From an uncultured Chloroflexia bacterium (GTDB lineage Bacteria; Chloroflexota; Limnocylindria; Limnocylindrales; CSP1-4): a stretch of DNA of 64,000 nucleotides. The notes beneath the pieces were generated by a model. That model ran no database searches. It was not told the DNA's origin and saw nothing but the letters and a program-made list of their open reading frames with translations. A program made the translations under genes and the position numbers. Location: positions 325,965 to 389,964 of the forward strand of contig CAWGVH010000006.1 of NCBI GenBank assembly GCA_963825995.1. Direction: 5' to 3'. Shown here piece after piece: positions 11,298-30,952 of the stretch (positions are counted from its first letter, which is position 1; every line of letters starts with the position of its first letter).

Positions 11298-11665
11298 CCA
11301 TGTTCATCTCCAAGGTCACCTCGAAGGTGGTCGGCGACAAGCGGCGGTGGCGGGCGTACAAGGCGCGCGTCAGACAGCTTCCCCCGGACTATCGCACGGC
11401 GGTCGATGCGATCGAGCGGTACCTGATGCTCTTCGGCCCGGTGGACGGCGACAGCGCGGCATCGGTGTTCGAGGACGTCGCCGACCTCTTCGAGCGGGCC
11501 GCGGCGGATGCAACGCCGATCCGCGAGATCGTCGGGGAGGATCCCGTGGAGTTCGTGGACGCGTTGGTTCGGAACTACCCGAAGGGAGGATATGTCGACC
11601 GGGAGCGGGAGCGGCTGGTCACCGTCATCGAGGGCCTCGAGCGAGAGGAGAAGGAGGACCGATGA
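11294..11665 (+). CDS. DUF1048-like small protein commonly paired with PadR
   Basis: Met at residue 77 of ORF 11066..11665. ATGA overlap with the padR stop and with the downstream ABC ATPase start. Family assignment by gene context and size only. Confidence 0.5.
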   Translation: MTMFISKVTSKVVGDKRRWRAYKARVRQLPPDYRTAVDAIERYLMLFGPVDGDSAASVFEDVADLFERAAADATPIREIVGEDPVEFVDALVRNYPKGGYVDRERERLVTVIEGLEREEKEDR

Positions 11666-12477: not shown

Positions 12478-12486
12478 GGAACGACG

Positions 12487-13251
12487 ATGAACACGCACTT
12501 CCCCGGCGACACCGCCGTCCTCACGGGACGATCCCTGCGCCACATCACGCGCAGCCTGGACACCATCATCACGACCGCGATCATGCCGATCGCCATCCTG
12601 CTGCTGTTCGTCCTCGTCTTCGGCGGTGCGATCGACTCCGGGTCCGATTCGTACGTGACCTACCTGCTGCCCGGCATCCTGCTCATCACGGTCGCGTCGG
12701 GGGTCGCCTACACCGCCCTCCGGCTCTTCCTGGATATGAAGAGCGGCATCTTCGAGCGATTCCAGTCGATGCCGATCGCACGGTCGTCCGTGCTGTGGGC
12801 GCATGTGCTGACCTCGCTGGTCGCCATCATGATGTCGCTCGCGGTCGTCATGCTCGTCGCCATCCTCATGGGCTTCCGCTCGGACGCGGGCGTGCTCGCG
12901 TGGCTCGCTGTCGCCGGCATCCTGATCCTGTTCACCCTGGCGTTGACCTGGCTCGCCGTCATCGCCGGTCTTGCCGCGAAGACCGTGGACGGCGCCGGCG
13001 CATTCGCCTATCCGCTCATCTTCCTGCCGTTCATCAGTTCGGCATTCGTGCCCACCGAGACCATGCCCGGCCCGGTACGCGTCTTCGCCGAGAACCAGCC
13101 GGTGACGTCCATCGTCAACGCCATCCGCGACCTGTTCGCGGGGCAGCCGGTCGGCACCGACATCTGGTTCGCCCTCGCCTGGTGCGTCGGCATCCTCGTC
13201 GTCGCGTACGTCGTCTCCATCGTCACCTACCGCCGCAGGGTCTCCCTGTAG
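12487..13251 (+). CDS. ABC-2 family transporter permease
   Basis: 254 aa, 6 predicted TM helices, immediately downstream of the ATPase gene. Confidence 0.75.
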   Translation: MNTHFPGDTAVLTGRSLRHITRSLDTIITTAIMPIAILLLFVLVFGGAIDSGSDSYVTYLLPGILLITVASGVAYTALRLFLDMKSGIFERFQSMPIARSSVLWAHVLTSLVAIMMSLAVVMLVAILMGFRSDAGVLAWLAVAGILILFTLALTWLAVIAGLAAKTVDGAGAFAYPLIFLPFISSAFVPTETMPGPVRVFAENQPVTSIVNAIRDLFAGQPVGTDIWFALAWCVGILVVAYVVSIVTYRRRVSL

Positions 13252-13534: not shown

Positions 13535-14056
<522 letters not shown>

Positions 14057-15514
14057 GGAGTCCGCCCCCCTGGCAGCTTACCGGGCCAACGAGACGCCGC
14101 CACCGGCCACGGCCGCGGAGCCCGGCGATACCGGCGCCCCGGAGCACGAGGCCCCGCTACCTCATGACTACGACGCCTCCCGCCGGGCCTTCTTCCGCCA
14201 GTTCAGCAGGGAGGCTGTGACGACCCTCGGCCATGTGGCCGGCATGGCCGGCATGGTCAACCGCGTCTCCGGCTCGGCGGCGGCCGGCCTGCTTGGCCTG
14301 GCGGACCCCGCGGTGAGTCGACCATCCCACCCCGCCGGCACCGGGTCGCGGGGAGCTGCCCTCGTCACGTCGGCATCGGCTGCCCCGGCCGGCGACGATG
14401 TCTTCCGCAGCGCCTACCGCATCTCGGGCAACCAGCTCGTGCTGCTGGACCAGCGTGTCATCCCGGAGAAGCTGGAGGACCTGGTGGCCCGACGTGGCAG
14501 CGACGTCGCCTACTACCTGCGCCTGGGCGCCTGCCGCGGGGGTGCCGTGATGGCACAGGTGGCTGCCTACGGGCTTGCCCTGACGGCCAGCGAACGCGCC
14601 ACGCAGCCCATCGCGGCTCGCGATGCGGAACTGCAGCGGACACGGCAGGCGCTGGCTTCTGCGCGTCCATCCTCGCGCCTGCCGGTCTGGGCGATGGAGC
14701 GCATGGAGGCTGTCCGTGTCGGCCTGGATGAGGCGGCCGACGGGGCTGCAGTCGCTGCCGCGCTGCGTGCGGAGGCTGATGCCATCGCCGACGATGTCCA
14801 ATCGGGCCATGCCATCATCGTGGCCGCGCTCACCGAGATGCTCGGCGGGCCGCGCGACCGCCCACTGGGCGTGCTGGTGCACGGCGACCCGGGTGCACTG
14901 AGTGGCGGACTGGTGGGCACGGGTATCACGGCCCTGCGGGGCCTGCGCGATGTGGGCCGCGAGCTGCAGGTGTTCGTGACCGAGACGCGTCCGTTCATGG
15001 AGGGCGCGCGCCTGGCCAGCTGGGAGCTGCGCCACGCCGGCATCGACCACAAGGTCATCCCGGACTCGGCGGTGGCGTGGCTCTTCGACCGCGAGACCAT
15101 CGACGTCGTGCTGATCGGTGCGGAGTGGATCGCTGCCAACGGTGACACCGGTGCCGTCATCGGCAGCCGCGCCATCGCCCTATTGGCCTCCGCGGTGGCG
15201 GACGACCCCGGGCGGACACGGCCGCGAGTCATCGTCTGTGGCCTGAGCGCCACCATCGACCCTTCCACTCCGGATGGTCACGCCGTCCCCGTGGAGCTGC
15301 GGCCCGCGCGCGATCAGGCTGCCTACCTGGCCGGCCTCTCGATCCGGGTGTCGGACGCCTTGGTACCAGCGGGCGATGTCATCCCCGCCCAGGCCATCGC
15401 TGCCCTGGTGACCGAACGCGGCGTCCTGGTGTCACCGTCCGCGCCGGCCATCGCGTCGCTCCTCGCCGCGTCGGAGGTGACCGGGACCGTACGCTCACCG
15501 GAGACCGCCGGCTG

Positions 15515-16387
15515 ATGGCCAGCCTCACGCGATCCGGACTGGCCACCACCCGCCGACTGGAGGTCCACGCCACGCGTGACCGGGCCGCGCTCCTCGCCTT
15601 CCTGGAGCGAGACCGCCTCTTTGCCGCCTACGCGATCGCTGACATGGACGACGCCGAGTTCCCGCGAACCCGCTGGGGCATGGCGCTCGAGGCGGGACGT
15701 CCGGTGGCTGTGGTCATGGAGTATCGCGGCATCTCACCGCAGCACCTCTTCGTCATGGGCGACCCGGAGGGCATCGGCGGCATCCTGCGCGAGGTCATCC
15801 GCACCCGCCTCGCCTACCTGGCCACCATGCCGGACAGCGTGCCGACGCTGGTCGAGCGCTACCGCGTGGACCCGCCGACCGACATGGTCCGCATGGTCGT
15901 GGATCGGGCCACATTCCGTCCGGTGCTCGGCGACAGCGTGCGCCTTGACGTTGCTGACACGCGGCATCTGAACCGCCTCTACGAGCTGGGGCTGACCTCG
16001 TGGCTGCCGCCCGAGGCGGTGGCGGCCGGCATCTACTACGGCGTCCGTCGAGGCACACGGCTGATCGCCGCCGCCGGCACCCACGTCATCAGCCCCACCT
16101 ACGGGCTCGCGGCAGTCGGCAACGTCTACACCAACCGTGACTACCGAGGCCAGGGCCTGGCCAAGGTGGTCACGAGCGCGGTGACCACCGAGCTGTTGGG
16201 CATGCTGCCGGAGGTCGTCCTCAACGTTCGCGCGGATAATCCGCCGGCCTTGGCCGCCTACCGTGCCCTTGGCTATCGCGAGCACACCCACTTCGAGGAG
16301 CGCCTCGTGGCCCGCCGCAGCTCGCTCTGGGATAGCATCGTGGGGCCCATCCGGCAGTACGTCACCCGACCCAGGAGCGATGCATGA
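15515..16387 (+). CDS. GNAT-family N-acetyltransferase
   Basis: 290 aa. C-terminal acetyl-CoA-binding-like segment ([13 protein letters not shown]). ATG overlaps the upstream TGA. Start overlaps ahcY (ATGA). Confidence 0.55.
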
Positions 16388-17718
16388 CCGATACACCTGC
16401 GCCGACCCATCCGATGCCGACCACCGCCGGTGACGCCGCGATCGGCCAGACCGAAGCCCTCCCGCCACACGACGTCGCCGATCTTGGTCTCGCGGGCGAA
16501 GGCGTCCGCCGCATCGAATGGGCCGAGCGCGAGATGCCGGTGCTGCGCCTCATCCGCGAGCGATTCACGACCGAGCGGCCCCTGGCCGGGCTGCGCATCA
16601 GCGCCTGCCTGCATGTCACGACCGAGACGGCCAACCTCATGCGCACGCTCCAGGCCGGCGGCGCTGAAGTGACGCTGACGGCCTCCAACCCGCTCTCCAC
16701 CAAGGACGATGTGGCTGCCGCGTTGGTTGCTCGCTACGGCATCAGCACCTACGCCATCCGCGGCGAGGACAACGAGACCTACTACCGCCACTTGAACCTG
16801 GCCGCAGACACGCACCCTCATGTCACCATGGATGACGGGTGCGACCTCGTGGTGCTCCTGCACCAGCACCGCCGCGACCAGCTGGGTGAAGTCCTGGCCG
16901 GCACTGAGGAGACGACCACCGGTGTCATCCGCCTCAAGGCCATGGCCGCCGATGGGGCGCTGGCCTTCCCGGTCGTGGCCGTCAACGAGGCCCAGACCAA
17001 GCACCTCTTCGACAACCGCTATGGCACGGGCCAGTCCACGGTGGACGGCATCATGCGCGCGACCAACATCCTGCTGGCCGGGCGCCGCTGCGTGGTGGCT
17101 GGCTACGGCTGGGTCGGCCGAGGCATCGCCAGCCGGCTGTCGGGCATGGGTGCCCAGGTGACGGTGGTCGAGGTTGACCCCGTGCGCGCCATCGAGGCCC
17201 TCATGGACGGGCACCAGGTCATGACCGCTGGCGATGCGGCCAGGTGGGGCGAGGTCTTCGTGACCGCCACGGGCAACATCAACGTCTTCCGCGAGGAGCA
17301 CTTCCGCGTCATGGCGGACGGGGCGCTGCTGGCCAACAGCGGGCACTTCGATGCCGAGCTGGACCTCAAGGCCCTCACTCGACTCGCCGAGGGGCACATC
17401 CGCGAGGTCCGTAACGACGTCCGCGAGTACGACCTGGGCGCCAAGAAGCTCTACCTGCTGGCCGAGGGTCGCCTCGTCAACCTCGGCGCGGCGGAGGGCC
17501 ACCCGGCCGCCGTCATGGACATGAGCTTCGCCGGCCAGGCACTCTCCGTCGAGTACGTGGCCCGCCACCACGGGTCGCTGGCGAAGGCCGTTCACGTGGT
17601 GCCTGCCGAGATCGATGCCCAGATCGCCCGTCTCAAACTGGAGGCCCGCGGCATCTTCATCGAGGGCATGACCGAGGAGCAGATCCGCTACACGAACTCC
17701 TGGGATCAGGGCACGTAG
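16384..17718 (+). CDS. ahcY: adenosylhomocysteinase
   Basis: 444 aa. NAD-binding [13 protein letters not shown]. Conserved SAHH blocks ([22 protein letters not shown]). Confidence 0.9.
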
Positions 17719-17781
17719 CGGAGCATCACCTCGGTCACCGGTCCGGCTGCCCGATCAGCCCGCCGGCCCGGGATCATCCGG

Positions 17782-18510
17782 TCAGAGGGGACGCAACAGG
17801 ACGGACAGGTCGGCGCCCGAGGTGACTTCGCGCGTGGCCTCGAGGAGCTTGGCGCCGTCCGCCCAGGCGCGCGCCTGGTCCTTCCTGAGGCGGTGCTCCT
17901 CGGCCAGCATGAGCGTCCACAGCTTGGGATAGTGGTCGCGCAGGTACTCGCTGGCCCGGTAACGGGTCACGAACTCGTTGACGAAGGCCGCGTAGCGGGT
18001 GACGGGATCCGTGTGGGCCGCCATCCGCTCGAACTCGTGCTGGTAGCCCGCGGCCGCCCGGAAGCGTCCGAAGAAACCTCCCACGCTGTGAGCGCCGGTG
18101 TCCCAGCCCTGGGAGTGCCCGCCGCGCCGCAGCAGGGGGGCGGGCGACTCGAAGACGCAGATGACCTCTCCGTTGATCCGTTCCGCGCGCAGCGTGCCGC
18201 CGAAGGAGAGGTAGCGGTTGGCCACGCCCTTGCGATCGATGACCGAGATGCGGCCCCACGAGAAGGAGCCCTGGCGAGGCAGGCGGCTGGCGAAGGTGAT
18301 GGTCTCGTTGAAGCCGTGGTCCTTGTCGTCGGTGACCCAATACTCGACCAGTTCGGGGTCGTAGTGGCGCAAGGTGGGCTTGGCCCGGATGGCCACCAGC
18401 AGGAACGCCGGTCCGGGCCGATCGGGCAGGTCCGGGTCGGCCAGGAACCCCCAGTCTGCGAGCAGCTCGGCGGCCAGCGGCGGATCGATCGAGGCGGGCA
18501 GGTTGGCCAT
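17782..18510 (-). CDS. hypothetical protein (243 aa), no recognised domain
   Basis: Met at residue 35 of ORF 17782..18612. Protein-like composition. Sits on the opposite strand between ahcY and metK. Confidence 0.4.
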
Positions 18511-18704
18511 CTTGCACGAGCATGGGCCCACACCCCGCAGCCGTGCGATGGCCATCGGTCCCGAAGTGGCCTGCCGCCGGCCCCCCGCAACCGGTCCCCA
18601 TGGCCCGCGCACCCTGTCGCTGGCAGCATGCGTGCTACCCTTCGGCCGACCCGCTCGCCGGCTATTCGCAAGCCCTGATCCGCCATGACCAAGACGAGGG
18701 ACCC

Positions 18705-20018
18705 ATGACCGACCACCGCAGTGCCGACCCGCACCTCTTCACCTCGGAATCGGTCACCGAGGGCCACCCGGACAAGATGTGCGACCAGATCTCGGACGCC
18801 ATCCTGGACGCGATCTTCGTCGAGGACCCCAACGCCCGTGTGGCCTGCGAGACGGCCACCACGACCGGCCTGGTCATGGTCCTCGGCGAGATCACCACGA
18901 AGACCTACGTGGACTTCCAGGACGTCGTGCGCAGCACGGTCAAGGACATCGGTTACACGCACTCGGAGTACGGCTTCGACCACGAGACGTGCGGCACCAT
19001 CGTGGCCGTCAAGGAGCAGTCGCTGGACATCGCCCGGGGGGTGGACCACGCGCAGGAGGCGCGCCCGGACGGCTCCTCCTACGACGAGCTCGGCGCCGGT
19101 GACCAGGGGATGATGTTCGGTTTCGCCTGCCGCGAGACGCCGGAGCTCATGCCTCTGCCCATCTCGCTGGCGCATCGCATGGCCCGCCGGCTGGCCGAGG
19201 TGCGCAAGAGCGGACAGCTGCACTACCTGCGCCCGGATGGCAAGACCCAGGTGACCGTGGAATACGAGGGTGACCGCCCGGTGCGCGTGCACACGGTCGT
19301 GGTCTCGGCGCAGCACGACCCGGACGTGGAGCCGGAGCGCATCCATGACGACATCATCGAGACGGTCATCCTGCCCAGCATCGACCGCGAGCTTCGGGCG
19401 AGCGACCCGGTCATGCACGTCAATCCGACCGGTCGTTTCGTGACCGGGGGGCCAAAGGGTGACGCCGGCTTGACGGGCCGCAAGATCATCGTCGACACCT
19501 ACGGCGGCTACGCTCGTCACGGCGGCGGCGCCTTCTCGGGCAAGGATCCCACGAAGGTCGACCGCTCGGCAGCCTACGCGGCGCGCTGGGTCGCCAAGAA
19601 CGTCGTGGCGGCCGGCCTCGCCACGCGCTTCGAGCTCCAGGTCGCCTACGGCATCGGCATCGCCCGTCCCGTCTCGATCGGGGTGGATGCCTTCGGCACG
19701 GAGACCGTCCCAGAGGCCGAGATCCTGCGCCGCATCCAGCGTGTCTTCGACCTGCGCCCGGCGGCCATCATCAACGCCCTCGGCTTGCGCCAGCCGATCT
19801 TCCGACAGACGGCCGCCTATGGCCACTTCGGCCGGCCGGACCTCGATCTGCCCTGGGAGCGCACTGACAAGGCGGACTCTGCTGCGCGACTGACGGCCCT
19901 CGCGCGACTGGCACAGCGGTCGACCAGCGGTCGCCCTGTCGAGCCCGGCCGTCGGGTCCGAGGCCACGGCACTCAGGGCTGGGCGTCGGCCAGCGCCTCC
20001 CTTGCCACGGCCAGGTAG
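18705..20018 (+). CDS. metK: S-adenosylmethionine synthetase with ~40 aa C-terminal extension
   Basis: [38 protein letters not shown]. Met at residue 62 of ORF 18522..20018. GAGG 6 nt upstream. Confidence 0.9.
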
Positions 20019-21064
20019 CGTTCCACCGTCCGCTCGAGGCTGAGCTCCCGGGCGAGCCGCTGCACGGCTGGATCCGGGTCCGGGAGTGGCTCGGCTAGCA
20101 GCTCCCGGATGGCGGCAGCCAGCGGCAGCGGCTCCGTGGGGCTGAAGAGGTGCAGCGCCCCCGGTGCGCGTGGCTCGTACTCGCGGACGCTGGGCAGGTC
20201 GCTGACCAGCATGGGCTTGCCAGCTGCGATCCACGAAGACATCGACCCGGATGCCGACAGGTCGGTGAATGGCAGGATGGCCAGATGTGTGGCCGCGATC
20301 CACGTCTCCAGGTCCTCCTCGGAGAGGTAGCCCGTGATGCGGAAGCGGTCACCCAGGCCCAGCTCCTCCGCCTTGGCCAATGCCAGGTCGTGCACGAAGC
20401 TGCGCCCGGCCACCGGGCCTCCGGCATAGACCATCACGATGTCTTCGGGCAGGTGCGGCACGGCCTCCACGGCATAACGGTGGCCCTTGCGGCCGTAGAC
20501 GAAGCCCAGCAGGGTGACGATGCGACGGTCGGCCAGTCCCAGCCGAGCGCGGGCCTCCTCGGGACGCAGGGCCAGCTCGCGTCGCTCCACGAAGTGAGGG
20601 ATGACACGCATTCGATCGGCAGGGATGATGCCGCGCAACCGCTCCACCTCGACCTGTGAGTGCACCACGATGAGGTCGGCGACCCGGCCCAGCCAGCGCA
20701 GGCTCCAGGCGTCAGGTGCCAGGTAGCGTTCACGCAGGCCGTGGCGATCGAAGATGTCATGAAGGGTGACGACGAGCGCTCCGCGGTAGGCGCGCCGGAA
20801 GCGCATCAGCCGGTACAACGCTCCGCCATGCTTGCCCCAGCCACGTCGGTTCCACTGCATGAGCAGCACCTGCGCCTCGGCAAGCTCGGCCGCCACCTGG
20901 GCCAGTCGACCCGATCCCTCGTCCACACGGCCCGCCTCGGCCTCGTGCACGGTCAGTCCACCGCCGGCGCGGGTGGCGTCGGCGATGAGCTGGCCATAGC
21001 GGCGCACGCCGCTCTCCGGCCGGCCGAGGTGCAGGAACCCGAGGTCGCGCAGCTCGGCTGGCAT
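19973..21064 (-). CDS. GT4-family (group 1) glycosyltransferase, paralog A
   Basis: 364 aa. Alignable end-to-end with paralog B (23382..24473), e.g. [16 protein letters not shown] versus GFLHVGRERSGLRRYG. GT-B C-terminal pattern. Confidence 0.75.
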
Positions 21065-21086
21065 CGTCAGGCCGGCCCGGCTGGTC

Positions 21087-21980
21087 TCAGTCGGCGTAGC
21101 CGAGGTGCCGCAGGAGGTCGCCCGCCTCGGCCTCGATCTCAGCCAGCTCCGAGGGGTAGAAGGTGCTCCGCCAGGTGCCCACCGACGAATCGTCGGCACG
21201 CTGCACCGCCGTCAGGAAGCGGTCGCGCGAGGCCCGGGCCATGATGCCCAGGAAGTCGAGGATGCGCTCACCCTCGTCCAGCGGGGCCCGCACCAGGGAC
21301 TCGTAGCGCAGTTCGTGATAGCGCGCCGGCCCGAGCCGAGGGCCTTCCGTCAGGCCAGTCTCGGTGTAGCGGCGCCAGGCCCATGCCATGCGCCGGGCGT
21401 CGCTGGTGTTCAGGAACTCCTCGCGCCGCTCAGGCTCGACCCAGAACTTCGGCCAGGGCCCGTGGAGGTAACCGCCCGGCTCGCGCTCGCCTGACCAGGC
21501 GTCCTCGGCACGCAGCCAAGGCTTGTGCATGTGCGAGGAGGCCGCGTCGCGGCCATCGCGGATGATGTGGATGAACTGCGAATCGGGAAAGGCTCGCGCC
21601 AGGAACGGGATGAGGAAGATGTTGGTGGGTGTCTTCTCGCTGAAGCGAAGGTCGCCGTCGCGCTCCACCCGCACCAGCCAGCTGTACACGAGCCGAAAGA
21701 ACCAGCGCGAACGCCGGTAGCCCCAGAGCTGCTCGTAGACGTAGCGGCCGCCGGCCTTGGTGGCTGGGGGCTCGTGGTGGTAGGTGATCTCCGGGATGCG
21801 GCCGAGGCAATCGCCCAGGAAGGTCGTCCCCGAACGGGCGGCGCCGATGACGAAGACGGGTCGCTGGAGCCTGGGGAAGATCGAGGCCGTGAGGCGCGCG
21901 GCCGTCATGGGCCGGTGCCGCTCGAGCTTGAGGTAGTAGCGACGTTCGGCGCGGTAGGTCTTCTGGGCCAGGCGCCACAT
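21087..21980 (-). CDS. PAPS-dependent sulfotransferase (Sulfotransfer_1/3-like), paralog A
   Basis: 5'-PSB loop VFVIGAARSGTTFLG and 3'-PB RDGRDAASS present. Start set at MWRL (residue 76 of ORF 21087..22205) by length-matching to paralog B. The ORF extends to 22205 (TTG), so the start is uncertain. Confidence 0.7.
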   Translation of the reverse strand: MWRLAQKTYRAERRYYLKLERHRPMTAARLTASIFPRLQRPVFVIGAARSGTTFLGDCLGRIPEITYHHEPPATKAGGRYVYEQLWGYRRSRWFFRLVYSWLVRVERDGDLRFSEKTPTNIFLIPFLARAFPDSQFIHIIRDGRDAASSHMHKPWLRAEDAWSGEREPGGYLHGPWPKFWVEPERREEFLNTSDARRMAWAWRRYTETGLTEGPRLGPARYHELRYESLVRAPLDEGERILDFLGIMARASRDRFLTAVQRADDSSVGTWRSTFYPSELAEIEAEAGDLLRHLGYAD

Positions 21981-22213
21981 GTCAGCGATGCCGATGGGCA
22001 GCGGCTCCGGGTTGGCGTCCGGCGGAAGGCTGGGGTCGGTGCCGCGTGGCGGGAGAGACTCGGCGCTGGCGATGGGTGAGCGCGTCTCCGTCGCTCCGTC
22101 CGCCACCGGCGGTGCAGGGTCGATCGTCGGTTCCTCAGTCACGCTCGTGGTCAGCAGCCTCCTGTCCCGTGGGGTCGGGCGGATGATAGCCGTCCTCGTG
22201 CACAATCGTCGGC

Positions 22214-23323
22214 ATGTACGCCGTCATCCTGGCCGGGGGAGGGGGCACCCGTCTCTGGCCGCTCAGCCGCGACCGCAAGCCCAAGCCGTTCCTGCCGCTG
22301 CTGGAGGACGGCCGCTGCCTCCTGGCGGCGACCGCGGCGCGGCTCTCCCCGCTCATCGAGCTGACCGACGTCTTCGTCATCACCGACGTGCGCTACGCGG
22401 ACCTGGTCCGCGAAGCGATCCCGGACATCCCCGCAGGTAACGTGCTGGGTGAGCCCGTCGGGCGAAACACCGCGGCCGCCGTGGCGCTGGCCGCGGAGGC
22501 TATCGACCGTCCGGACGATGAGGTCATGACCGTCCTTCCAGCCGACCAGGCTGTCCGCGACGCTGCCGGCTACCTGGCGGCCCTCCAGGCAGCTTCCGAG
22601 CGAGCCGCAGGCGGCGACATGGTCACGCTCGGCATCGAGCCCACGTGGCCCTCGACGGGCTACGGCTACGTCGTCGCCGAGGGCCCGGCTCGAGCGCACG
22701 CCGGCCGGCCCACGTATCGAGTGGCGCGCTTCGAGGAGAAGCCCACGCCGCAGCGAGCCGCCGAGCTCCTCGCTGAAGGCGCCGCCTACTGGAACGCCGG
22801 CATCTTCGTGTGGCGCCGGGACGTCGTGCGATCCGGCTTGGCGCGGCATGCGCCGGACATCCTGGGGCCGCTCCACGATCGACTGGCGGGCGCCGGCCCG
22901 GCGGCCGAGACCGCCTCGCCCGGCTGGCCCGGTGCCGACCTCGCCGAGGCGTACGCCGCGCTGCGCGCGACGTCCATCGATTACGCGCTCCTGGAGCCAG
23001 CGTCTCTGGACGGCCAGGTCGCCGTCGTGCCGGCGGCCATCGGCTGGAGCGACCTGGGATCCTGGTCTGCTCTGCGCGACTATCGGGACAGCGGCGGTGC
23101 CCCGCTCATCAGTGCTGAAGAGCCGGCGCGCGTGCTGGACATCGAGGGCCACGACGTGCTCGTGCATGCCGCCGGCGGCCGCCTCGTGGCCATCGTGGGC
23201 CTGGAGGGCGTCATCGTCGTGGACACGCCCGACGCCCTGCTGGTGGCTGCAGCGGATGCCGCCCAGGACGTCAAGAAGGTCGTGGACCGCCTTCGCGCGG
23301 AGGGTCGCACCGACCTCCTGTAG
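22214..23323 (+). CDS. mannose-1-phosphate guanylyltransferase-like sugar nucleotidyltransferase
   Basis: N-terminal MYAVILAGGGGTRLWPLSR nucleotidyl-transferase loop. 369 aa. Confidence 0.8.
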   Translation: MYAVILAGGGGTRLWPLSRDRKPKPFLPLLEDGRCLLAATAARLSPLIELTDVFVITDVRYADLVREAIPDIPAGNVLGEPVGRNTAAAVALAAEAIDRPDDEVMTVLPADQAVRDAAGYLAALQAASERAAGGDMVTLGIEPTWPSTGYGYVVAEGPARAHAGRPTYRVARFEEKPTPQRAAELLAEGAAYWNAGIFVWRRDVVRSGLARHAPDILGPLHDRLAGAGPAAETASPGWPGADLAEAYAALRATSIDYALLEPASLDGQVAVVPAAIGWSDLGSWSALRDYRDSGGAPLISAEEPARVLDIEGHDVLVHAAGGRLVAIVGLEGVIVVDTPDALLVAAADAAQDVKKVVDRLRAEGRTDLL

Positions 23324-23381
23324 GCGGCCGTGGCGGTCGGCTGACGGCGCACGGGTGCCATCCTCCAGCTGCGCGGCGACC

Positions 23382-24473
23382 TCAGCCGGGCCGGCGTATC
23401 GCCGCGCGGTACAGCTCCACGTAGCGCTCCACGATCCTCGGCGTGGCCAGCTGAGCCGCAAGGGCCTCCACGCGGGGGTCGGGTGCCCCCGTGGCTCCGG
23501 CCAACGCCATGCGGATGGCCGCCGCCAGCGGTGCTGCCTCGTAGGGCGTGAAGCTGCGCAGCGCGCCGGGCGCCAGCGCCTCGAGCTCGCGGAACGGCGC
23601 CAGGTCGGATGCCACGATGGGCCGGCCGGCCGAGATCCAGGTCGCCAGCGCACCAGACGCCGACATGAAGCGGAACGGGCAGAGCGCCACGTCCGTGGCC
23701 ACCAGCACCTGCTCAAGCTCGGCCTCCGGCAGGTAGCCCATGAAGCGAACGCGGTCGGCGACGCCGATGTCCGCGGCGTGCGCCTGCAACTCCGCGGCGA
23801 CATGGTCGCGGCCCTCGATGACGGAGCCCACGAAGAGCGCCGTGACATCCGGTGGGAGGTCGAGGAGAGCATCGATGACCAGGCTGTGGCCGCGCCGCCT
23901 GGTGAGGTAGCCGAGCAACGTGATGACCCGGCGGTCGGCCACGCCCAGCAACGCGCGCGCGGTCTGTCGGTCAGGGAGGCCGCTGCGCACCTCCACGAAA
24001 TGCGGCACGACCGCGACCTTGGCTGCGGGAGCGAAGCCCACCAGCCGCGACCGCTCGTCCTCGCTGTGGACGACGAGGCACCCCGCCGTCCGACCGAGGC
24101 GCCGCAGGCCCAGGGCGGACGGGGAGAGCCGGCTCGCCACCCGGCCTGCCGGCGGGAAGACGTCGTGCATCGTGACCACCAGCGGCACGCGCAGTGACCG
24201 GCGCAGCACCTCGAGTCGGGGCAGGCCACCGCTACGCAGCCCCCAGTCGGCGAGCTTCCACTGGAGGTGCACGACGTCGGCGTCGCGCAACTTCGCGGCG
24301 GCCGCCCACAGGTCGGACATGGTGGCTTCGCGATCACCGCTGTCAGCCTCGATGACCTCGAGGTCGGGACGTCGAGCAGCCTCCGCGGCCAGGATGGCCC
24401 CGTAGCGTCGCAGCCCGCTCCGCTCGCGGCCCACGTGCAGGAAGCCGACCCGCAGTGGCCGCTCGCCGCTCAT
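23382..24473 (-). CDS. GT4-family (group 1) glycosyltransferase, paralog B
   Basis: 363 aa from MSGERPLRVGF. ATG overlaps the stop of the upstream sulfotransferase (ATGA). Confidence 0.75.
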   Translation of the reverse strand: MSGERPLRVGFLHVGRERSGLRRYGAILAAEAARRPDLEVIEADSGDREATMSDLWAAAAKLRDADVVHLQWKLADWGLRSGGLPRLEVLRRSLRVPLVVTMHDVFPPAGRVASRLSPSALGLRRLGRTAGCLVVHSEDERSRLVGFAPAAKVAVVPHFVEVRSGLPDRQTARALLGVADRRVITLLGYLTRRRGHSLVIDALLDLPPDVTALFVGSVIEGRDHVAAELQAHAADIGVADRVRFMGYLPEAELEQVLVATDVALCPFRFMSASGALATWISAGRPIVASDLAPFRELEALAPGALRSFTPYEAAPLAAAIRMALAGATGAPDPRVEALAAQLATPRIVERYVELYRAAIRRPG

Positions 24474-25374
24474 GCTCCGCCGGAGCCGGGCAGATAGCCG
24501 AGGTCGCGCAGCAGCTCGCCATGCTGGTGCCGCAACAGCGTGCGCAGGACGGATCCAGCGAGCGGCCGCCGGCACCGACTCGCGAGCGGTAGATGGTGGT
24601 CGTCTCGCCGCCGGCCTTGCGGCGCTGTGCGGTGAACCAGCGGTAGCGCTCGGTGGCCGCGTGGTCTGCCGGATCGAAGTCGAGCACTTCCGGGTGCCAG
24701 GCCTCGCCGAGGAAGTCGAAGAGGCGCCGCGCCTCCGCCTCCGGGTCGGCCACGAGCCGCTCGTAGCGCAGCTCGAGGACGCGCCGCCCGCCCAGGCGAC
24801 CGCTGAGTTCCATGGCGGCGTCGACGTAACGTGCCCACTCGGTCCGCGCGGCCCGCGCCGCCGAGCGGTAGCCCCAGCGGTCCCGGAAGCTGGCCACCAC
24901 ATCGTGCCCATCGCGCAGGAGGTGGATGAACAGGGCATCGGGGAAGAGTTCCTCGATGAAGGAGAGATGCAGCGTGTAGGTGGGGTCCTTCTCGGCCCAG
25001 CGCGCCTTGCCGGAGCGGGCCAGGACCTCGGCCTGGAAGTCGGCGTAGAGGCCGCGGATGCGAGCCAGCCACCAGTCCCGCGGCAAGCCGTAACCGGCCA
25101 CGAGGGGCCAGTCGCGGCCGACGATGCTTTGCAGCGCACGCAGGAAGTGGGTCTCCTCGCCGCAGGAGATGCGCGGGTGCGCGTCCAGCAGCAGGCGCAG
25201 CAGGGTCGTCCCCGAGCGCGGCGAGCCGATGACGAAGATGGGGGGCACAGTAGGGGCGACGCCGGCCGGGATGCTGGCTGGCTCGCCGGCCTTCGTGGTA
25301 GCCGGCGTGTCCGCACCGGCCCCGCCGGCTGTCGTCGCCGCCTGGGCCTCGCTTTCTTCTGACGCCTCGGGCAC
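24470..25374 (-). pseudogene. PAPS-dependent sulfotransferase paralog B, split across two reading frames by an apparent 1-nt frameshift (genuine pseudogene or assembly indel)
   Basis: N part in ORF 24343..25500 (IFVIGSPRSGTTLL; IHLLRDGHDVVAS). C-terminal tail in ORF 24470..25567 (LLRHQHGELLRDLGYLPGSGGA, homologous to paralog A end GDLLRHLGYAD). Span is not a multiple of 3. Likely start is the GTG at 25374, preceded by GGAAGGAGG. Confidence 0.6.
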
Positions 25375-25487
25375 CGATCCTCCTTCCTGGCTGCGGCTGC
25401 GCGAAGAGTCTAGCGACGGGCGGGGTACCATCGTGCCCATCCGGCCCCGCCCTTCGCGGGGTCGTCGAGCGAGGAGGCTGTCGATCC

Positions 25488-26960
25488 GTGTCCCCAACAC
25501 CGCCTGCCGGTCCAGCCATCATCTTCGGGACCGATGGCTGGCGTGCCAGGATCGGGGAGGAGTACACCTTCGAGAACGTGCGTCGCTGCGCCCAGGGCGT
25601 GGCCGAGTGGGTCGTCAGCCAGGGCAGCGCGGCGAGGGGTGTCGTGGTCGGCTACGACCGGCGCTTCGCCAGCGAGCACTTCGCGACGGCGGCGGCAGAG
25701 GTGCTGCTCGCGCATGACATCCCGGTGCTCTTCGCCGCCGGCGCCGTCCCTACGCAGATGACGTCCTACGAGGTCGTCGAGCACGGTGCCGCCTGCGCGG
25801 TCATGATCACGGCCTCCCACAACCCCTGGACGGACAACGGCTTCAAGATCAAGTCGCCCACGGGGGCAGCGGCCGACCCGCCCATCCTGTCCGCCGTCGA
25901 GCAGGTCATCCGCGCCCGCGCCGGCGAACAGCCGCCGCGCCGGCCCTTCGACGAGGCCGAGGATGCCGGGGCCGTGGAGCGCTTCGACCCCTACGCCGGC
26001 TACGAGACCTACGTGCGCCGCACCCTGGACCTCGACCGCCTGCGTGCCCAGGAGATGCGCGTACTGGTCGACCCGCTCTATGGCTCGGGTGCCGGCTGGA
26101 TCGGCCGGCTGCTGGCGGGCGGCCGCATCGTCGTCGACGAGATCCACAGCGAGCGCAATCCCTGGTTCGGGGGCGTCAACCCGGAGCCGATCCGCCCGCA
26201 TGTGGACGAGGCCCTTGCCCGCGTGCGCGATGGCGGCTACGACTTGGGCCTGCTGCTCGACGGGGACGCCGATCGCGCAGGCGCTGTCGACGAGCGTGGC
26301 CAGTTCATCCACCAGTTGCAGTGCATGGGCCTGCTCATGTACTACATGCTCGAGCACCGCGGCGAGCGAGCAGCCGTCGTCACCACGGTCAACGAGACGT
26401 CCATGGCGCTCCGGCTCGGCGAGCGTTACGGCGTGGCCGTCCACGAGACTCCGGTGGGCTTCAAGTTCGTAGGGCCCCGCATGATCGAGACCGCGGCCAT
26501 GATGGGCGGCGAGGAGTCGGGTGGCTACGGCTTCGGCATGCACCTCCCCGAGCGCGACGGCATCTACGCTGACCTGCTGCTGCTGGACCTCTTCGTGCGC
26601 GAGCGCGAGGCCGGCCGGGCCCCGGCGTCAGCCGCCGTGGCGCACCTGCACGACATCGCCGGCCCCTCGTTCTACCTGCGCGACGACGTGCACACCGACC
26701 GGGCCTCGTACCCGGCGCTCAAGGCGCGCCTCCTCGTCGAACTGGCCGAGCATTCGCCGGCCGGCCTGGGCGGGCGGCCGGTGGTGCGCACGGCCGCGCT
26801 GGACACGGGCGACGGCTTCAAGTTCTGGGTCGACGATGGCTCCTGGCTGCTGGTCCGCTTCAGCGGCACCGAGCCCCTGGTCCGGGTCTACACGGAGGCC
26901 AGCAGCGCCCAGTTGCGCGACGCCCTCCTGGCTGAGGGCAGCAGCATGGTCAAGGGATAG
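25488..26960 (+). CDS. phosphomannomutase/phosphoglucomutase (alpha-D-phosphohexomutase)
   Basis: GTDGWRA, phosphoserine loop TASHNPWTDNGFK, 490 aa. GAGGAGG RBS upstream of the GTG. Confidence 0.85.
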   Translation: MSPTPPAGPAIIFGTDGWRARIGEEYTFENVRRCAQGVAEWVVSQGSAARGVVVGYDRRFASEHFATAAAEVLLAHDIPVLFAAGAVPTQMTSYEVVEHGAACAVMITASHNPWTDNGFKIKSPTGAAADPPILSAVEQVIRARAGEQPPRRPFDEAEDAGAVERFDPYAGYETYVRRTLDLDRLRAQEMRVLVDPLYGSGAGWIGRLLAGGRIVVDEIHSERNPWFGGVNPEPIRPHVDEALARVRDGGYDLGLLLDGDADRAGAVDERGQFIHQLQCMGLLMYYMLEHRGERAAVVTTVNETSMALRLGERYGVAVHETPVGFKFVGPRMIETAAMMGGEESGGYGFGMHLPERDGIYADLLLLDLFVREREAGRAPASAAVAHLHDIAGPSFYLRDDVHTDRASYPALKARLLVELAEHSPAGLGGRPVVRTAALDTGDGFKFWVDDGSWLLVRFSGTEPLVRVYTEASSAQLRDALLAEGSSMVKG

Positions 26961-26969
26961 GCAGCCGCA

Positions 26970-28073
26970 GTGAACGCGGATCCTGGACCTGGTACGAGCG
27001 GCGGCATCCTCGACGACCCCGAGGCCATGCGCCGTGCCGACCCGGCCGGCATGCTCGGCCTGGTCGCCGAACTCCCGGACCAGTTCGAGGAGGCTTGGCA
27101 TATCTCGCGTTCACTGGACCTGTCATGGCCGGAGCCGCGGGCGGTGGCCGTCCTGGGCATGGGCGGCTCGGCGATCGGGGGCGATCTCGTGCGGGGCATC
27201 TGGTCCGACCGTCTGACGGTGCCCCTGGAAGTCGTGCGCAGCGACGAGCTGCCGGCTTGGGTGGGCACGGAGACGCTCGTCATCGCCAGCTCCAAGAGCG
27301 GACGCACGGCGGAGACCATCAGCGCTCTCTCGACCGCGCTGGAGCGGCGCTGTCCGGTCGTCGTGGTGACCACCGGTGGCCCGTTGAAGGAGGTGGCACG
27401 GCATGCCGGATTGCCCCTCGCCACGTTCCCGGCCCGAGGTACGCCACGCTCGTCGCTGGGCTACTCGATGGGCCTGCTGGCCGGCATCCTCGAACGTGTC
27501 GGCGTCCTGCCCATCGACGGGGCCGAGGTCAGTGCCGGCGCCAAGGCCGCCCGTGAGATGGGCGCCCGCTGCGCTCCTGACGTGCCCACCGCGGACAACC
27601 CCGCCAAGCAGCTCGCCTGGTCGCTGGTGGACCGCTACGCGGTCATCGTCGCGGCGGGCTTCCTGGCGCCCGTGGCACGCCGCTGGAAGGCCCAGCTCAA
27701 CGAGAATGGCAAGGCTGCTGCCGCTTTCGAGGAGCTGCCGGAGGCGACGCACAACACTGTGGCCGGCTTCGAACAGCCCGAGTCGCTGCGCGACCACCTC
27801 TACGTCCTCTTCCTGGCCAGCGAACTCGACCATCCGCGCAACGTGCTTCGTGCGCGGCTCATGGGCGAGATCCTTGACGCCGCCAAGATCACCCAGGAGG
27901 TGGTCCGGGCCACCGGGGAGGGCCGGCTCGGGCAGGCACTCTCAGCCCTCACGATGGGTGACTACACGAGCGTCTATGTGGCCTTCACGTACGCCGTTGA
28001 TCCCAGCCCGGTCGCGGTCATCGACCACTTGAAGCAACGGCTGGCGCTGGCCGAGGGGCAGGCCACTTCGTAA
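26970..28073 (+). CDS. bifunctional phosphoglucose/phosphomannose isomerase (SIS-domain, archaeal-type PGI/PMI)
   Basis: SIS motif ASSKSGRTAETI. 367 aa. Gene order PMM then PGI/PMI. Confidence 0.7.
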   Translation: MNADPGPGTSGGILDDPEAMRRADPAGMLGLVAELPDQFEEAWHISRSLDLSWPEPRAVAVLGMGGSAIGGDLVRGIWSDRLTVPLEVVRSDELPAWVGTETLVIASSKSGRTAETISALSTALERRCPVVVVTTGGPLKEVARHAGLPLATFPARGTPRSSLGYSMGLLAGILERVGVLPIDGAEVSAGAKAAREMGARCAPDVPTADNPAKQLAWSLVDRYAVIVAAGFLAPVARRWKAQLNENGKAAAAFEELPEATHNTVAGFEQPESLRDHLYVLFLASELDHPRNVLRARLMGEILDAAKITQEVVRATGEGRLGQALSALTMGDYTSVYVAFTYAVDPSPVAVIDHLKQRLALAEGQATS

Positions 28074-28216: not shown

Positions 28217-28504
28217 ATGCACTCCAGCGTCATCGGCAAGATCGAGAAGGCGCATCGCTACGCTCGTGAGCGCGATCGCATCACCGTCGAGCGCCTGGCG
28301 GTCACGTTCGCCGGCGACAACGATGCTCATCGTGTCGTCCTCGAGGCCGATGAGTGGCAGTGCAACTGCCACTACTTCGAAAGTTGGAAGACGTGCGCCC
28401 ACATCCTGGCCCTGCAGGAGATCCTCGGCGTCATGCTGCCAGAGAACGCACAGACATCCCTCTTCCCGGTGGCAGCAGCGGCCGACGAGGCCAGCGGCTC
28501 GTAG
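28217..28504 (+). CDS. small SWIM zinc-finger protein
   Basis: CxC...CxH pattern WQCNCHYFESWKTCAHILA. 95 aa from Met at residue 30 of ORF 28130..28504. GGAGGTG RBS 6 nt upstream. Confidence 0.5.
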   Translation: MHSSVIGKIEKAHRYARERDRITVERLAVTFAGDNDAHRVVLEADEWQCNCHYFESWKTCAHILALQEILGVMLPENAQTSLFPVAAAADEASGS

Positions 28505-28544: not shown

Positions 28545-29423
28545 CTACGTGACGTCCAACAAGTAGAACGTCCGCATCCAGCCGCGCTCGCGGTCGAACT
28601 CGACTTCCAGGTCCAGCCGCCAGCGTCCCGGCATCGGCGGCTCGAGGCCCTTCAGGCTGACGACGCCAGCCAGGGGCTCCGTGAGGGCGGCCTCGCTTCG
28701 GACGGTATCCAGGGCCGGTTCGTCAACGGGCGTCAGGCGCCCATCCCAGGCCACGATGGCCGATCCGTCCGCTGCCTGCGCCGTGAGCAGGTCACCGACC
28801 TTGGCTTCGAGCACCGGCAGTGTCTCCGCTGGAGGCGGGTTGCCGACGTCGACGCAGAGGTAGGCGTAGCAGCCACTGCCCGACTGCCCCGCCGTGGATC
28901 CGGCGCTCGAGCCGACCACGATGTCCGGTGCCGGGATGTCGTAGAGGCCATCCAGAGGTGCCGGGCGGTCAGGCACGTCGACGACCCAGGCGTGCTGGCT
29001 GGCAACTCCATGCCCGATCGTGACATCGGCCACGACGAGGTGGCTTCCGACTCCATCAGGACCCTCGAACGTCAGGGCGCCGTCCGACAGGGGCTCGTCC
29101 GCCCCCGGCGCCCCACGCGGCAGTGCCGTCACGATGAGCGCCGTGATGGCCGCGCCACCGTCGATCTCCAGGACCAGGGGCGCACCACGCACGACGGTGC
29201 CCAGCGGCTGATCTCCTGGGGGTGCCGTGGCCGGATCGTCCACGCTGCCTCCAGCTACACGACCGAACGGGCCACGCAGCCAGACCGTCGGTGGCGCTGT
29301 GACCGGCGCCGCGCTGGCCCCGGGGGCGTCAGGGACGGCCGGCGGTGGGGTGTCCTGTCCGCCGGCCCTGGCGGTGGGGACCAGGGCCTGCACGAGGAGG
29401 AGCGATACGAACGCGTGTGCCAT
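28545..29423 (-). CDS. secreted hypothetical protein (signal peptide MAHAFVSLLLVQALVPTARA)
   Basis: Pro/Ala-rich after the signal peptide. Co-directional with and overlapping the upstream metalloprotease gene. Confidence 0.5.
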   Translation of the reverse strand: MAHAFVSLLLVQALVPTARAGGQDTPPPAVPDAPGASAAPVTAPPTVWLRGPFGRVAGGSVDDPATAPPGDQPLGTVVRGAPLVLEIDGGAAITALIVTALPRGAPGADEPLSDGALTFEGPDGVGSHLVVADVTIGHGVASQHAWVVDVPDRPAPLDGLYDIPAPDIVVGSSAGSTAGQSGSGCYAYLCVDVGNPPPAETLPVLEAKVGDLLTAQAADGSAIVAWDGRLTPVDEPALDTVRSEAALTEPLAGVVSLKGLEPPMPGRWRLDLEVEFDRERGWMRTFYLLDVT

Positions 29424-29437
29424 CAATCGCTGGACGG

Positions 29438-30952
29438 TCACCGTCCCACCCGCACCTTCAGCGTGGGCGAGGTGCTGGTCCGCAGGCCTTCAGCGGCCGG
29501 AGCCGGGAAGACGGCCTGGTACTCCCAGGTGGCCTGGGGCACGATGGCCAGGCTGTAGCCACCGTTGGTCAGGGGCTCCATGTAGAGCGTGGTCCAGGCA
29601 TCGCTGCTCCCGGCGCGGCGGTAGCGCAGCTTCACCGAGCGGCCGTTGAGGGCGTTGCCGGCGAGGCGCCCCACGGACGACAAGGGCGAGACCTTGAGGT
29701 CTGCGCGGAGACGGATGGTGGTGCCCGGAAGGACCGTCGTGCTGGCCGTCCCCAGAGTCAGGTCCGTGGCCACGTCATTGCAGGTGGAGACCGGCGAGGT
29801 ACTGCTGGGCAGGTCGTAGAGTTCCTGCAGGGTCGCGACGTCGCAGCGTCCGAAGGCGTGGCGAGTGCTTCCGGCGCTGGGTTTGGCTGGGGTGATGGCG
29901 TGCATGACCGTCTCATTGGCTTCCAGGTTGAAGCCTTCACGCGAGGGATGGTCAAGCCCGTCGATGTGACCGAGCTCGTGGATGAGCACCCGGCGCAGAT
30001 CGAAGCATCCGGCCGCGTCCTCCTTCTGGCACCAGCGCAGCGTCCCCCAGCTGAAGCCCGTGCCGTGCGGACGCAGCCACACGAGCCACGAGACGGGCAT
30101 GTTGCGGGAGGCACAGGCGATGCCGTAGCGGCAGAAGTCCGGGAATGAGGGGGTGTAGCGCACGGTGTCCGCCGCACCGCTCCGATGGACGAAGCGCGGG
30201 CTGCGTGACAAGGTCGTGTCCGAGGCATCCGCTGCCCCGCTGGTGATGGGGGTCTTGGCCCATTCAGGCGGCATAGCCCCGGCCAGCCAAGAGAAGGGCA
30301 GGACCGTGTCCTTCGGCCAGGCCCCCGCCGGGAAGGCGGGCACAGGGCGCGGAGCCCCGGCCGGCACGAAGTCGGCGGGCGTCAGCTCCCCGTCGTTGGG
30401 CTGGCAGGAGGTGTTGCACTGCCCATCGATCATGGCCACCGTGGCACCGCCTTCCGCCTCGAGAACGAGATTCCCCAGGAGCTTGCGTGTTGCGGGGTCG
30501 TGGATGGCGAGCAGCAGCTCACCCGGGTCGGTGGCCGAGTCGGTCTCGAACGCGAGACCGTCGAACGTGCGCTCCCAAAGCCGACAGGCACGACCGGTGT
30601 CCAGCATCGTCACCGAGGTGCTCTCCGCTGACCGCTCTCCGACCAGGAGGCGAGCGCCCGACACCGGCACCGAGAAGCCCTCGCGCCCGGCACGTAGGGT
30701 GAGATCGACTCCCCCGCGGCGCAGGACCAGGCGATGCCCAGCCACGACGCCGTTTGCGTCAAGCACGGTCTGCCAGGGCGTCACCACCTCGGCATCCGCA
30801 GGACCGTCCGTGCCTCCTGTCGAACAGTCCGGGACCGCGACCGCCCATGGCGGAGCCGCGAGGGTGGCGGCTGGCAGCAACGCCAGCAGCAGGGTGGCCG
30901 CCAGGGCGGCACGGGCCGCGCGACGGTCTCGTTCATGGGTGCGTCCTTCCAT
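29438..30952 (-). CDS. secreted metzincin zinc metalloprotease (matrixin/M10-like)
   Basis: Signal peptide RAARAALAATLLLALLPAATLAAP. Zinc site VLIHELGHIDGLDHPS (HExxHxxGxxH). 504 aa. Confidence 0.7.
   Translation of the reverse strand: MEGRTHERDRRAARAALAATLLLALLPAATLAAPPWAVAVPDCSTGGTDGPADAEVVTPWQTVLDANGVVAGHRLVLRRGGVDLTLRAGREGFSVPVSGARLLVGERSAESTSVTMLDTGRACRLWERTFDGLAFETDSATDPGELLLAIHDPATRKLLGNLVLEAEGGATVAMIDGQCNTSCQPNDGELTPADFVPAGAPRPVPAFPAGAWPKDTVLPFSWLAGAMPPEWAKTPITSGAADASDTTLSRSPRFVHRSGAADTVRYTPSFPDFCRYGIACASRNMPVSWLVWLRPHGTGFSWGTLRWCQKEDAAGCFDLRRVLIHELGHIDGLDHPSREGFNLEANETVMHAITPAKPSAGSTRHAFGRCDVATLQELYDLPSSTSPVSTCNDVATDLTLGTASTTVLPGTTIRLRADLKVSPLSSVGRLAGNALNGRSVKLRYRRAGSSDAWTTLYMEPLTNGGYSLAIVPQATWEYQAVFPAPAAEGLRTSTSPTLKVRVGR

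Follow-up and report, generated by a model that had tools for sequence, protein, structure and literature searches.

The stretch analysed here, referred to as the window, comprises 64,000 nucleotides of an uncultured Chloroflexota bacterium of the order Limnocylindrales (contig CAWGVH010000006.1, positions 325,965 to 389,964), in which genes were chosen by selection of open reading frames (ORFs) guided by GC content at the third codon position and families were assigned with Pfam and NCBIfam. The locus in question (Table 1) contains two minus-strand pairs, each of a sulfotransferase gene (ST-A, ST-B) followed by a gene for a GT4-like glycosyltransferase (GT-A, GT-B; labels of the genes, not of folds), which flank a gene for a ManC-type guanylyltransferase and are followed by genes for a phosphohexomutase and a bifunctional phosphoglucose/phosphomannose isomerase (PGI/PMI). 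This arrangement had been described in the initial annotation, made from the sequence without database searches, and the family matches confirmed that the genes are real; the 22-bp gap between ST-A and GT-A was also found as claimed. Each ST-GT pair is divergent from one sugar-activation operon, and the shorter of the two spacers, that between ST-A and ManC, might have a regulatory role. The GTG start codons of ST-B (25374) and of the mutase (25488) are preceded by GGAAGGAGG and GAGGAGG, respectively, and a scan of the locus for promoters and terminators gave nothing informative.

Table 1. Genes and other features of the sulfotransferase-glycosyltransferase locus and its metK side (positions in the window).
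Feature	Position	Strand	Basis
sahH	16384-17718	+	gene order
conserved gene without Pfam match	17782-18612	-	gene order
metK	~18702-20018	+	gene order
GT-A, GT4-like glycosyltransferase, 363 aa, GT-B fold	19973-21064	-	Pfam, AlphaFold2 (AF2), Foldseek, motif alignments
ST-A, PF13469 sulfotransferase, ~355 aa	21087 to ~22154	-	Pfam, homolog alignment
divergent spacer ST-A/ManC, ~59 bp	22155-22213	none	sequence
ManC-type mannose-1-phosphate guanylyltransferase, 369 aa, without PMI domain	22214-23323	+	Pfam, NCBIfam
GT-B, paralog of GT-A, 363 aa	23382-24473	-	Pfam, alignment
ST-B, TPST-like PF13469 sulfotransferase, frame broken	24470-25374	-	Pfam, TPST match, DNA alignment
ST-B frameshift site, GGATCC(-C)GTCC	24549-24555	-	alignment to relatives
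divergent spacer ST-B/mutase, 113 bp	25375-25487	none	sequence
PGM/PMM-family phosphohexomutase, presumed phosphomannomutase	25488-26960	+	Pfam, NCBIfam
SIS-type bifunctional PGI/PMI	26970-28073	+	Pfam, NCBIfam

Both sulfotransferases matched the Sulfotransfer_3 family (PF13469), ST-A with 92 bits (E 7e-26) and ST-B with 138 bits (E 9e-40) at a score cutoff of 27 bits, and the Pfam sulfotransferase matches were to PF13469 and PF00685 only. The 5'-phosphosulfate-binding (5'-PSB) motif reads AARSGTTF in ST-A and SPRSGTTL in ST-B, and the 3'-phosphate-binding (3'-PB) motif RDGRDAASS and RDGHDVVAS, respectively. Both motifs (xRSGTTx and RDG[RH]D...S) were invariant across 12–15 homologs, and a catalytic Glu and Lys of the type known from tyrosylprotein sulfotransferases (TPST) were present in both proteins and invariant in the homologs examined. 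The motif residues for binding of 3'-phosphoadenosine-5'-phosphosulfate (PAPS) align to R78, R183 and S191 of TPST2. The initial annotation had named both motifs and had proposed alignment of the PAPS-binding residues as a check; these residues proved conserved and the claim stands.

The two STs are only about 30% identical to each other and belong to different subfamilies. ST-A carries a conserved insert of ~45 aa (21400-21540, residues ~224-268 of the 355-aa product) with the pattern REPGGYLxGP...WWVEP..R..F..TSD, which is absent from ST-B and from the TPSTs and was modelled with low confidence; the AF2 model of ST-A as a whole was poor (pLDDT 56). The start of ST-A had been placed at 21980, which had to be abandoned: conservation begins ~58 codons further upstream with a pre-domain N-terminal region (TTSVTEEP...PPDANPEPLPI...WR.A.KTYRAERRYY), and in a close relative (locus L068) the product is called at 355 aa. 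A start near 22154 is therefore likely, with the exact position uncertain within 22142-22205, the codon at 22154 being CTG.

ST-B matched human TPST1 and TPST2 with E 2e-22 over PRSGTTL, CGEET, KDP and RDGxxxxxS, and TPST2 was also the best PDB sequence match of ST-A, albeit a weak one (E 1e-3). On these matches the STs, especially ST-B, could be taken for tyrosylprotein sulfotransferases of the RaxST/TPST type, the GT-like partners of which would glycosylate or bind the same protein or peptide. We regard this as very improbable: the TPSTs are the best-studied members of PF13469, ST-B also matched the NoeE model (partially, with E 4e-16 and 59 bits against a cutoff of 500 bits), neither a candidate precursor peptide nor secretion genes are adjacent, the small nearby ORF encoding a SWIM-type zinc finger, and the homologs are located among GT and Wzx genes. 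Although ST-B has the same 5'-PSB loop, CGEET, KDP lysine and 3'-PB RDG...S as TPST1/TPST2 (PDB 3ap1, 5wri), the latter are type II membrane enzymes of the Golgi acting on acidic peptides, whereas ST-B is predicted to be free of transmembrane segments, is coupled to a GT and has its homologs in polysaccharide clusters. NoeE and NodH, the sulfotransferases of rhizobial Nod factors, are PAPS-dependent STs acting on the sugar of a glycoconjugate, but ST-B has no nod context. The nearest plasmid-borne relative of ST-A in PLSDB was XssE of the synechan cluster (25% identity, E 3e-8), and in cyanobacteria of the Phormidesmis type homologs of ST-A (~50%) and ST-B (~43%) are separated by ~3 kb in glycan clusters that also contain GTs and a third ST. 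Since the ST homologs sit in GT/Wzx glycan clusters, the context favours carbohydrate rather than tyrosine sulfation.

The frame of ST-B is broken in the window. The frame that bears the motifs runs on to 24343; a different frame encodes the conserved C-terminus (...LLRDLGY...) and includes the ATGA overlap with GT-B. Alignment at the DNA level located the lesion to a CCC run at ~24551-24552, from which one C is missing: the window reads GGATCCGTCC, while GGA[C/T]CCCGTCC is intact in five relatives (L003, L004, L005, L022 and L068), including L068, which is 95% identical to the window at the nucleotide level. In the corrected frame the ST-B stop at 24470 overlaps the GT-B ATG at 24473 (ATGA), and this 4-nt overlap is kept in the relatives. 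The translational coupling proposed in the initial annotation, in which the frameshift had been missed, thus holds for the corrected frame and not for the window as read. A second gene of the window, fabF (KAS II; 54030-55299, plus strand), is frameshifted near 54576-54583, so that the first 180 aa, among them the active-site segment ACASSGH, and the remainder (IRRGDADIMVAGG...) are read in two different frames; it breaks at ...GAGATCGATCCGG..., a GATCC, as does ST-B. Because the ST-B deletion is specific to the window and the fabF lesion is also located at GATCC, the former is probably a motif-linked consensus error of the assembly; many of the related contigs are long-read assemblies of metagenome-assembled genomes (MAGs) full of broken genes. 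A true pseudogene or a programmed frameshift was considered and found unlikely, the deletion being unique to the window even against the 95% relative.

GT-A and GT-B both matched the Pfam families Glyco_trans_1_4, Glycos_transf_1 and Glyco_transf_4 and are 44% identical in a gap-free alignment, so that the earlier description of the two pairs as paralogous modules applies to the GTs but not to the STs with their different subfamilies and the insert of ST-A. The AF2 model of GT-A (pLDDT 84.7) has the GT-B fold, with GlgM, sucrose-phosphate synthase, MshA, HepE and PimA as top Foldseek matches (probability 1.0, TM 0.6-0.75) and ManT, PglA and BshA as further neighbours. The EX7E motif, said to occur in every GT4 structure (PMC3898925), was found in GT-A to be replaced by S270-A-S-G...S277-W278, as revealed by HMMER alignment with HepE and MAFFT alignment with canonical GT4 enzymes; in GT-B the motif reads SASGALATW, with Ser for the first Glu and Thr for the second. 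A profile hidden Markov model of GT-A/B run against 1.84 billion representatives, with clustering at 50% identity, delimited at E<1e-30 a subfamily that comprises 260 clusters. The best 150 subfamily representatives had neither Glu, the first position being S/A and the second T/S, while A271-S272-G273, W278, H102-D103, H157 and K193 were near-invariant among them; the YGRKGH segment, which may bind the diphosphate of a nucleoside diphosphate (NDP) sugar, had K193 in 145 and G194 in 143 of 152 family sequences. GT-A and GT-B thus belong to a distinct and constrained GT4-like subfamily, whose members do not have the look of decayed enzymes.

The substitution of both EX7E positions by Ser/Ala and Thr/Ser in 152/152 family sequences, together with a single ST-GT fusion that is compatible with an obligate complex, would agree with a role of the GT4-like proteins other than glycosyl transfer: they might have no catalytic activity and bind the substrate as partners of the STs, comparable to GtfB for GtfA, or they might catalyse transfer of another group. 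Little credence is given to such a role. The positions of the NDP-sugar-binding type (the GRKGH segment with K193, H102-D103 and H157) are conserved, the near-invariant ASG...W points to an active site that is altered but functional rather than decayed, and multi-GT fusions within the family (GT4-GT4, GT2-GT4 and GT61) resemble polymerising glycosyltransferases.

That each ST works with its GT was further indicated by members of the GT-A/B subfamily from outside the lineage, four of which were sampled (L073/L074, L075, L076 and L077). In the Phycisphaerae contig L075 the gene order is Wzx-ST-ST-ST-[GT-GT]-GT2 and in L077 GT2-GT2-methyltransferase-GT4-ST-[GT]-Wzx-ST-ST (subfamily members in brackets), both with a 4-nt ST/GT overlap. 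The order in L073/L074 is GT-ST-ST-GT-Wzx-ST-ST-[ST::GT fusion], the ST after Wzx being 47% identical to ST-A. The fusion, P0381, is a protein of 749 aa in which a Sulfotransfer_3 domain at the N-terminus is joined to a subfamily GT domain at the C-terminus (35% identity to GT-A/B, with SASG...W), and it was assembled independently in two samples (Logan SRR34348081/82). In L076 a methyltransferase gene, not an ST gene, is located upstream of the GT. In the Wzx cluster of the low-GC contig L048, which has six GT4 genes, a homolog 53% identical to ST-A is directly followed by a GT that lacks EX7E; the Wzx flippase is thus present in the distant ST-GT clusters L048, L073, L075 and L077. A sister family of EX7E-less GTs is widespread in cyanobacteria, and its members have polysaccharide pyruvyl transferases (PS_pyruv_trans) as neighbours or fusion partners, or a Sulfotransfer_2 gene as neighbour; the pyruvyl-transferase links fit the logic of a GT combined with an anionic modifier. 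In these gene neighbourhoods the recurring unit is a modifier gene followed by a GT gene within Wzx-type polysaccharide clusters, and the functional coupling of ST and GT, as claimed for the locus from the start, is well supported by the recurrent adjacency, the 4-nt overlaps and the P0381 fusion. As a separate observation, L073 (1-13195, 63% GC), with five ST domains, Wzx, three GTs and P0381, is a candidate cluster for a heavily sulfated polysaccharide.

Within the lineage, a scan of the genome collection returned 65 loci, in which the locus genes were mapped by tblastn; the named homologs were MAGs of Chloroflexota or Candidatus Limnocylindrales. ST-A was found beside ManC in 51 distinct Chloroflexota MAG loci: both GTs were present in 31, seven had GT-B only, seven had neither GT but kept both STs, and six were cut by a contig end. 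The full order SIS-PMM / ST-B-GT-B / ManC / ST-A-GT-A / metK was kept in 30 loci, and the interleaved arrangement persisted from 90% down to ~52% ST-A identity. The locus had been described as the most accessory-looking region of the window, which is contradicted by its GC content (0.70-0.73 against 0.66-0.73 elsewhere) and by synteny across many MAG species; with this synteny it is a core locus and not an accessory one. Dispersal of the genes in relatives, named in the initial annotation as a point to check, was not encountered: the genes stay together. A horizontally acquired island was rejected in view of the flat GC, the conserved synteny and the lack of mobile-element genes among the scanned ORFs, and an actinobacterial locus of the PIM or mycothiol type, suggested by the GC content of the window (~71% overall), in view of the source-named homologs, which were labelled Chloroflexota/Limnocylindrales. 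The genes inserted within the locus in some relatives, such as those for pyruvate:ferredoxin oxidoreductase (PFOR), an extracytoplasmic function (ECF) sigma factor and uncharacterised proteins, have no tie to glycan synthesis. A GHMP-family sugar kinase is encoded between GT-B and ManC in one relative only, L037 (7681-8814), where it may supply the nucleotidyltransferase by sugar salvage, and a third PF13469 ST on the opposite strand is located between ST-A and metK in deep relatives that lack the GTs (L043, 11511-12410; L038, L045 and L054).

The initial annotation had read ManC, the mutase and PGI/PMI as a complete route from fructose-6-phosphate to GDP-mannose. The assignment is clear for ManC, with NTP_transferase and ManC_GMP_beta-helix domains in Pfam, the N-terminal part of which matched the NCBIfam model GMP_PMI with 270 bits, below its cutoff. 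PGI/PMI matched bact-PGI_C (E 8e-43) and the NCBIfam model for the bifunctional enzyme with 287-288 bits, just below the cutoff of 295. The mutase has all four PGM_PMM domains, but its best NCBIfam model was the archaeal GlmM (Arch_GlmM, 264 bits against a cutoff of 439), which places it in the PGM/PMM/GlmM superfamily; its designation as phosphomannomutase (PMM) is a contextual call. The proposed mannoside nature of the product is weakly supported, by adjacency within one syntenic lineage and by the second-hand JGI label 'beta-1,4-mannosyltransferase', which was assigned automatically to some members of the sister EX7E-less GT family.

Taken together, the locus, somewhat more probably than not, encodes the cytoplasmic steps by which a sulfated surface glycan is made; this glycan probably contains mannose and may be a wall-linked polymer. 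By their family membership, PGI/PMI, the phosphohexomutase and ManC would convert fructose-6-phosphate to GDP-mannose, and the two ST-GT bicistronic operons would each be transcribed divergently from one sugar-activation operon. The PAPS-dependent ST and the GT4-like GT of each operon would share one growing, probably lipid-linked, oligosaccharide, to which the GT would add a residue while the partner ST would sulfate that residue or the acceptor, in either order. The priming transferase, the flippase or exporter, the polymerase and the enzymes of PAPS synthesis would have to be encoded elsewhere in the genome. The donor sugar, the acceptor, the order of the reactions and the cellular destination are all conjectural in this scheme. 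The proposal of a dedicated sulfated glycoconjugate pathway in the initial annotation is therefore retained as far as the ST-GT coupling and the homologs in glycan clusters are concerned, while its mannose component and its glycolipid analogy are weak.

Several observations weigh against a mannose-containing surface glycan as the product. The 64-kb window contains no Wzx/Wzy, co-polymerase, priming transferase or PAPS-synthesis gene and no clearly linked ATP-binding cassette (ABC) polysaccharide exporter, and no credible motif of APS kinase, ATP sulfurylase or CysQ/H/D turned up when related loci totalling 1.27 Mb were scanned. All proteins of the locus are soluble by prediction, ST-B is frameshifted in the window, and the loss of both EX7E glutamates leaves the activity and the donor of GT-A and GT-B uncertain. 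The seven deep relatives have both STs beside ManC and no GT there, and the out-of-lineage ST-GT clusters examined are without GDP-mannose genes according to BLAST (L048-L061, L073) and Pfam tables (L075, L077). Finally, the whole neighbourhood (sahH-metK to the Fe-ABC transporter) is syntenic, and the adjacency of the GDP-mannose genes may be inherited gene order.

The last points lead to a possible, though less probable, alternative, according to which a sulfated glycan is indeed the product of the ST-GT pairs, with ManC, the mutase and PGI/PMI present as housekeeping neighbours and with a donor that need not be mannose. Because of the out-of-lineage clusters and the seven deep relatives without GTs it was given substantial weight. 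The genes from CoxE/XdhC to the Fe-ABC transporter are all syntenic, so that adjacency carries little information, and the genes inserted between those of the locus (PFOR, ECF sigma factor) are unrelated to it; yet the divergent pairing of the ST-GT and sugar-activation genes across only ~59 and 113 bp, the interleaving kept over the whole range of ST-A identity and the automated JGI label on the related GT family speak for a connection with mannose.

Instead of a polysaccharide, the product might be a small sulfated glycoside, either soluble or lipid-anchored, for example a compatible solute with a sulfated mannosyl group or a sulfoglycolipid. This could be suspected from a locus of predicted soluble proteins with neither flippase, polymerase nor priming enzyme, and from the small acceptors used by several of the top structural neighbours of GT-A, namely GlgM, sucrose-phosphate synthase, MshA and BshA. 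Such a product is judged quite unlikely: Foldseek ranks are non-discriminating within GT4, PglA, HepE and PimA having matched as well, the ST-linked family members examined sit in multi-GT polysaccharide clusters with Wzx, and the locus contains no phosphatase or lipid-synthesis gene. A more far-reaching version of the sulfated surface glycan, which we consider rather unlikely, would have the ST-GT bicistron as a hitherto undescribed sulfo-glycosylation unit recurring across several bacterial lineages, in which the Ser/Thr of the GT would accommodate a sulfated donor or acceptor and which would make a core sulfated mannan-like wall polymer in Limnocylindrales; in its extreme form the ST may sulfate the nucleotide sugar and the GT transfer the sulfated mannose.

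With regard to later steps of glycan assembly, the window also encodes a protein of the LCP (LytR-CpsA-Psr) family (57740-58855, plus strand). Its presence implies that the organism attaches glycopolymers to its wall, and it may act downstream of the locus in the ligation of the predicted glycan. At a distance of ~7 kb from the locus (10968-13251, plus strand), and with synteny conserved in L068, an ABC ATPase and an ABC-2 membrane protein are encoded together with a PadR regulator. Polysaccharide exporters of the Wzm/TagG kind belong to the ABC-2 family, but the linkage to PadR rather suggests an efflux pump.

The closest known counterpart is the xss (synechan) cluster on pSYSM of Synechocystis sp. 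PCC 6803, in which, as in the locus, STs of PF13469/PF00685 are located among GT4 and other GTs. However, xss unites in a single cluster Wzx, Wzy, a polysaccharide co-polymerase, regulators and eight GTs (PMC8205485), in contrast to the two ST-GT pairs without export or polymerisation genes in the locus, which differs further in its interleaved GDP-mannose genes and in its phylum, Chloroflexota; the EX7E motif that GT-A and GT-B lack is retained in XssG. By its description, the wps-1 cluster of Actinoplanes missouriensis is similar in having two STs of different families, with a sulfated polysaccharide predicted but not proven (PMC13390465), and is unlike the locus in being a full Wzx/Wzy/Wzz cluster. 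The analogy to Stf0/SL-1 drawn in the initial annotation holds as a concept, a sugar being sulfated from PAPS for an envelope glycoconjugate, but it is weaker than that to Wzx-type polysaccharides: Stf0 belongs to a different ST family with no match at the locus, no acyltransferase, polyketide synthase or MmpL gene is nearby, and relatives point towards a polysaccharide and away from a trehalose lipid. In xanthan synthesis a GT (GumI) is paired with an enzyme for an anionic substituent (GumL), as in the GT-pyruvyltransferase relatives, the modifier in the locus being an ST; GumI is a member of a different GT family.

Bacterial sulfated polysaccharides have been stated to be known only from cyanobacteria (PMC8205485; PMC13390465), with first genetic hints from an actinomycete in 2026 (PMC13390465). 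No literature tying sulfotransferases to Limnocylindria or Chloroflexota was found, the coupled unit of an ST and an EX7E-less GT not itself having been searched for. If the prediction, which is based on sequence and gene context, is correct, the order-wide ST/GT locus of Limnocylindrales, abundant uncultured Chloroflexota of soil and freshwater, would add a further phylum to those with predicted sulfated glycans, and the ST-GT unit is also present in the Phycisphaerae contig and further metagenomic contigs. Under the sulfo-glycosylation proposal a sulfated mannan-like polymer would even be constitutive in an abundant non-cyanobacterial lineage. The enzyme pair, a PF13469 ST and an EX7E-less GT4-like protein, is testable and could serve in the engineering of sulfated glycans.

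The surroundings of the locus are made up of housekeeping genes, namely mfd, pth, mtnA, sahH, metK, the Fe-ABC transporter genes, gcvT, tyrS, hom, thrC, acc genes, fabH and fabF as well as the LCP-family gene. A cluster for S-adenosylmethionine metabolism and methionine salvage (14022-20018), with mtnA (IF-2B family), a GNAT gene, sahH, the gene without Pfam match and metK, adjoins the locus, and its synteny is conserved in relatives; the gene calls of L001 combine mtnA and the GNAT gene in a single protein of 753 aa. The metK ORF overlaps the 3' end of the convergent GT-A by 46 bp (19973-20018), and the last ~46 residues of MetK are unconserved in most relatives, so that its stop and C-terminus may be atypical. 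Downstream of PGI/PMI, a conserved protein of ~95 aa with a SWIM-like CxC...CxH zinc finger (28218-28504, plus strand) is also encoded in L001 and L068. The next genes (28545-30952, minus strand) encode two secreted proteins without Pfam match; they were considered as glycan-assembly membrane proteins and rejected as such, the products being secreted and one of them, of 504 aa, having a signal peptide and the metzincin-type motif HELGHIDGLDH (HExxHxxGxxH).

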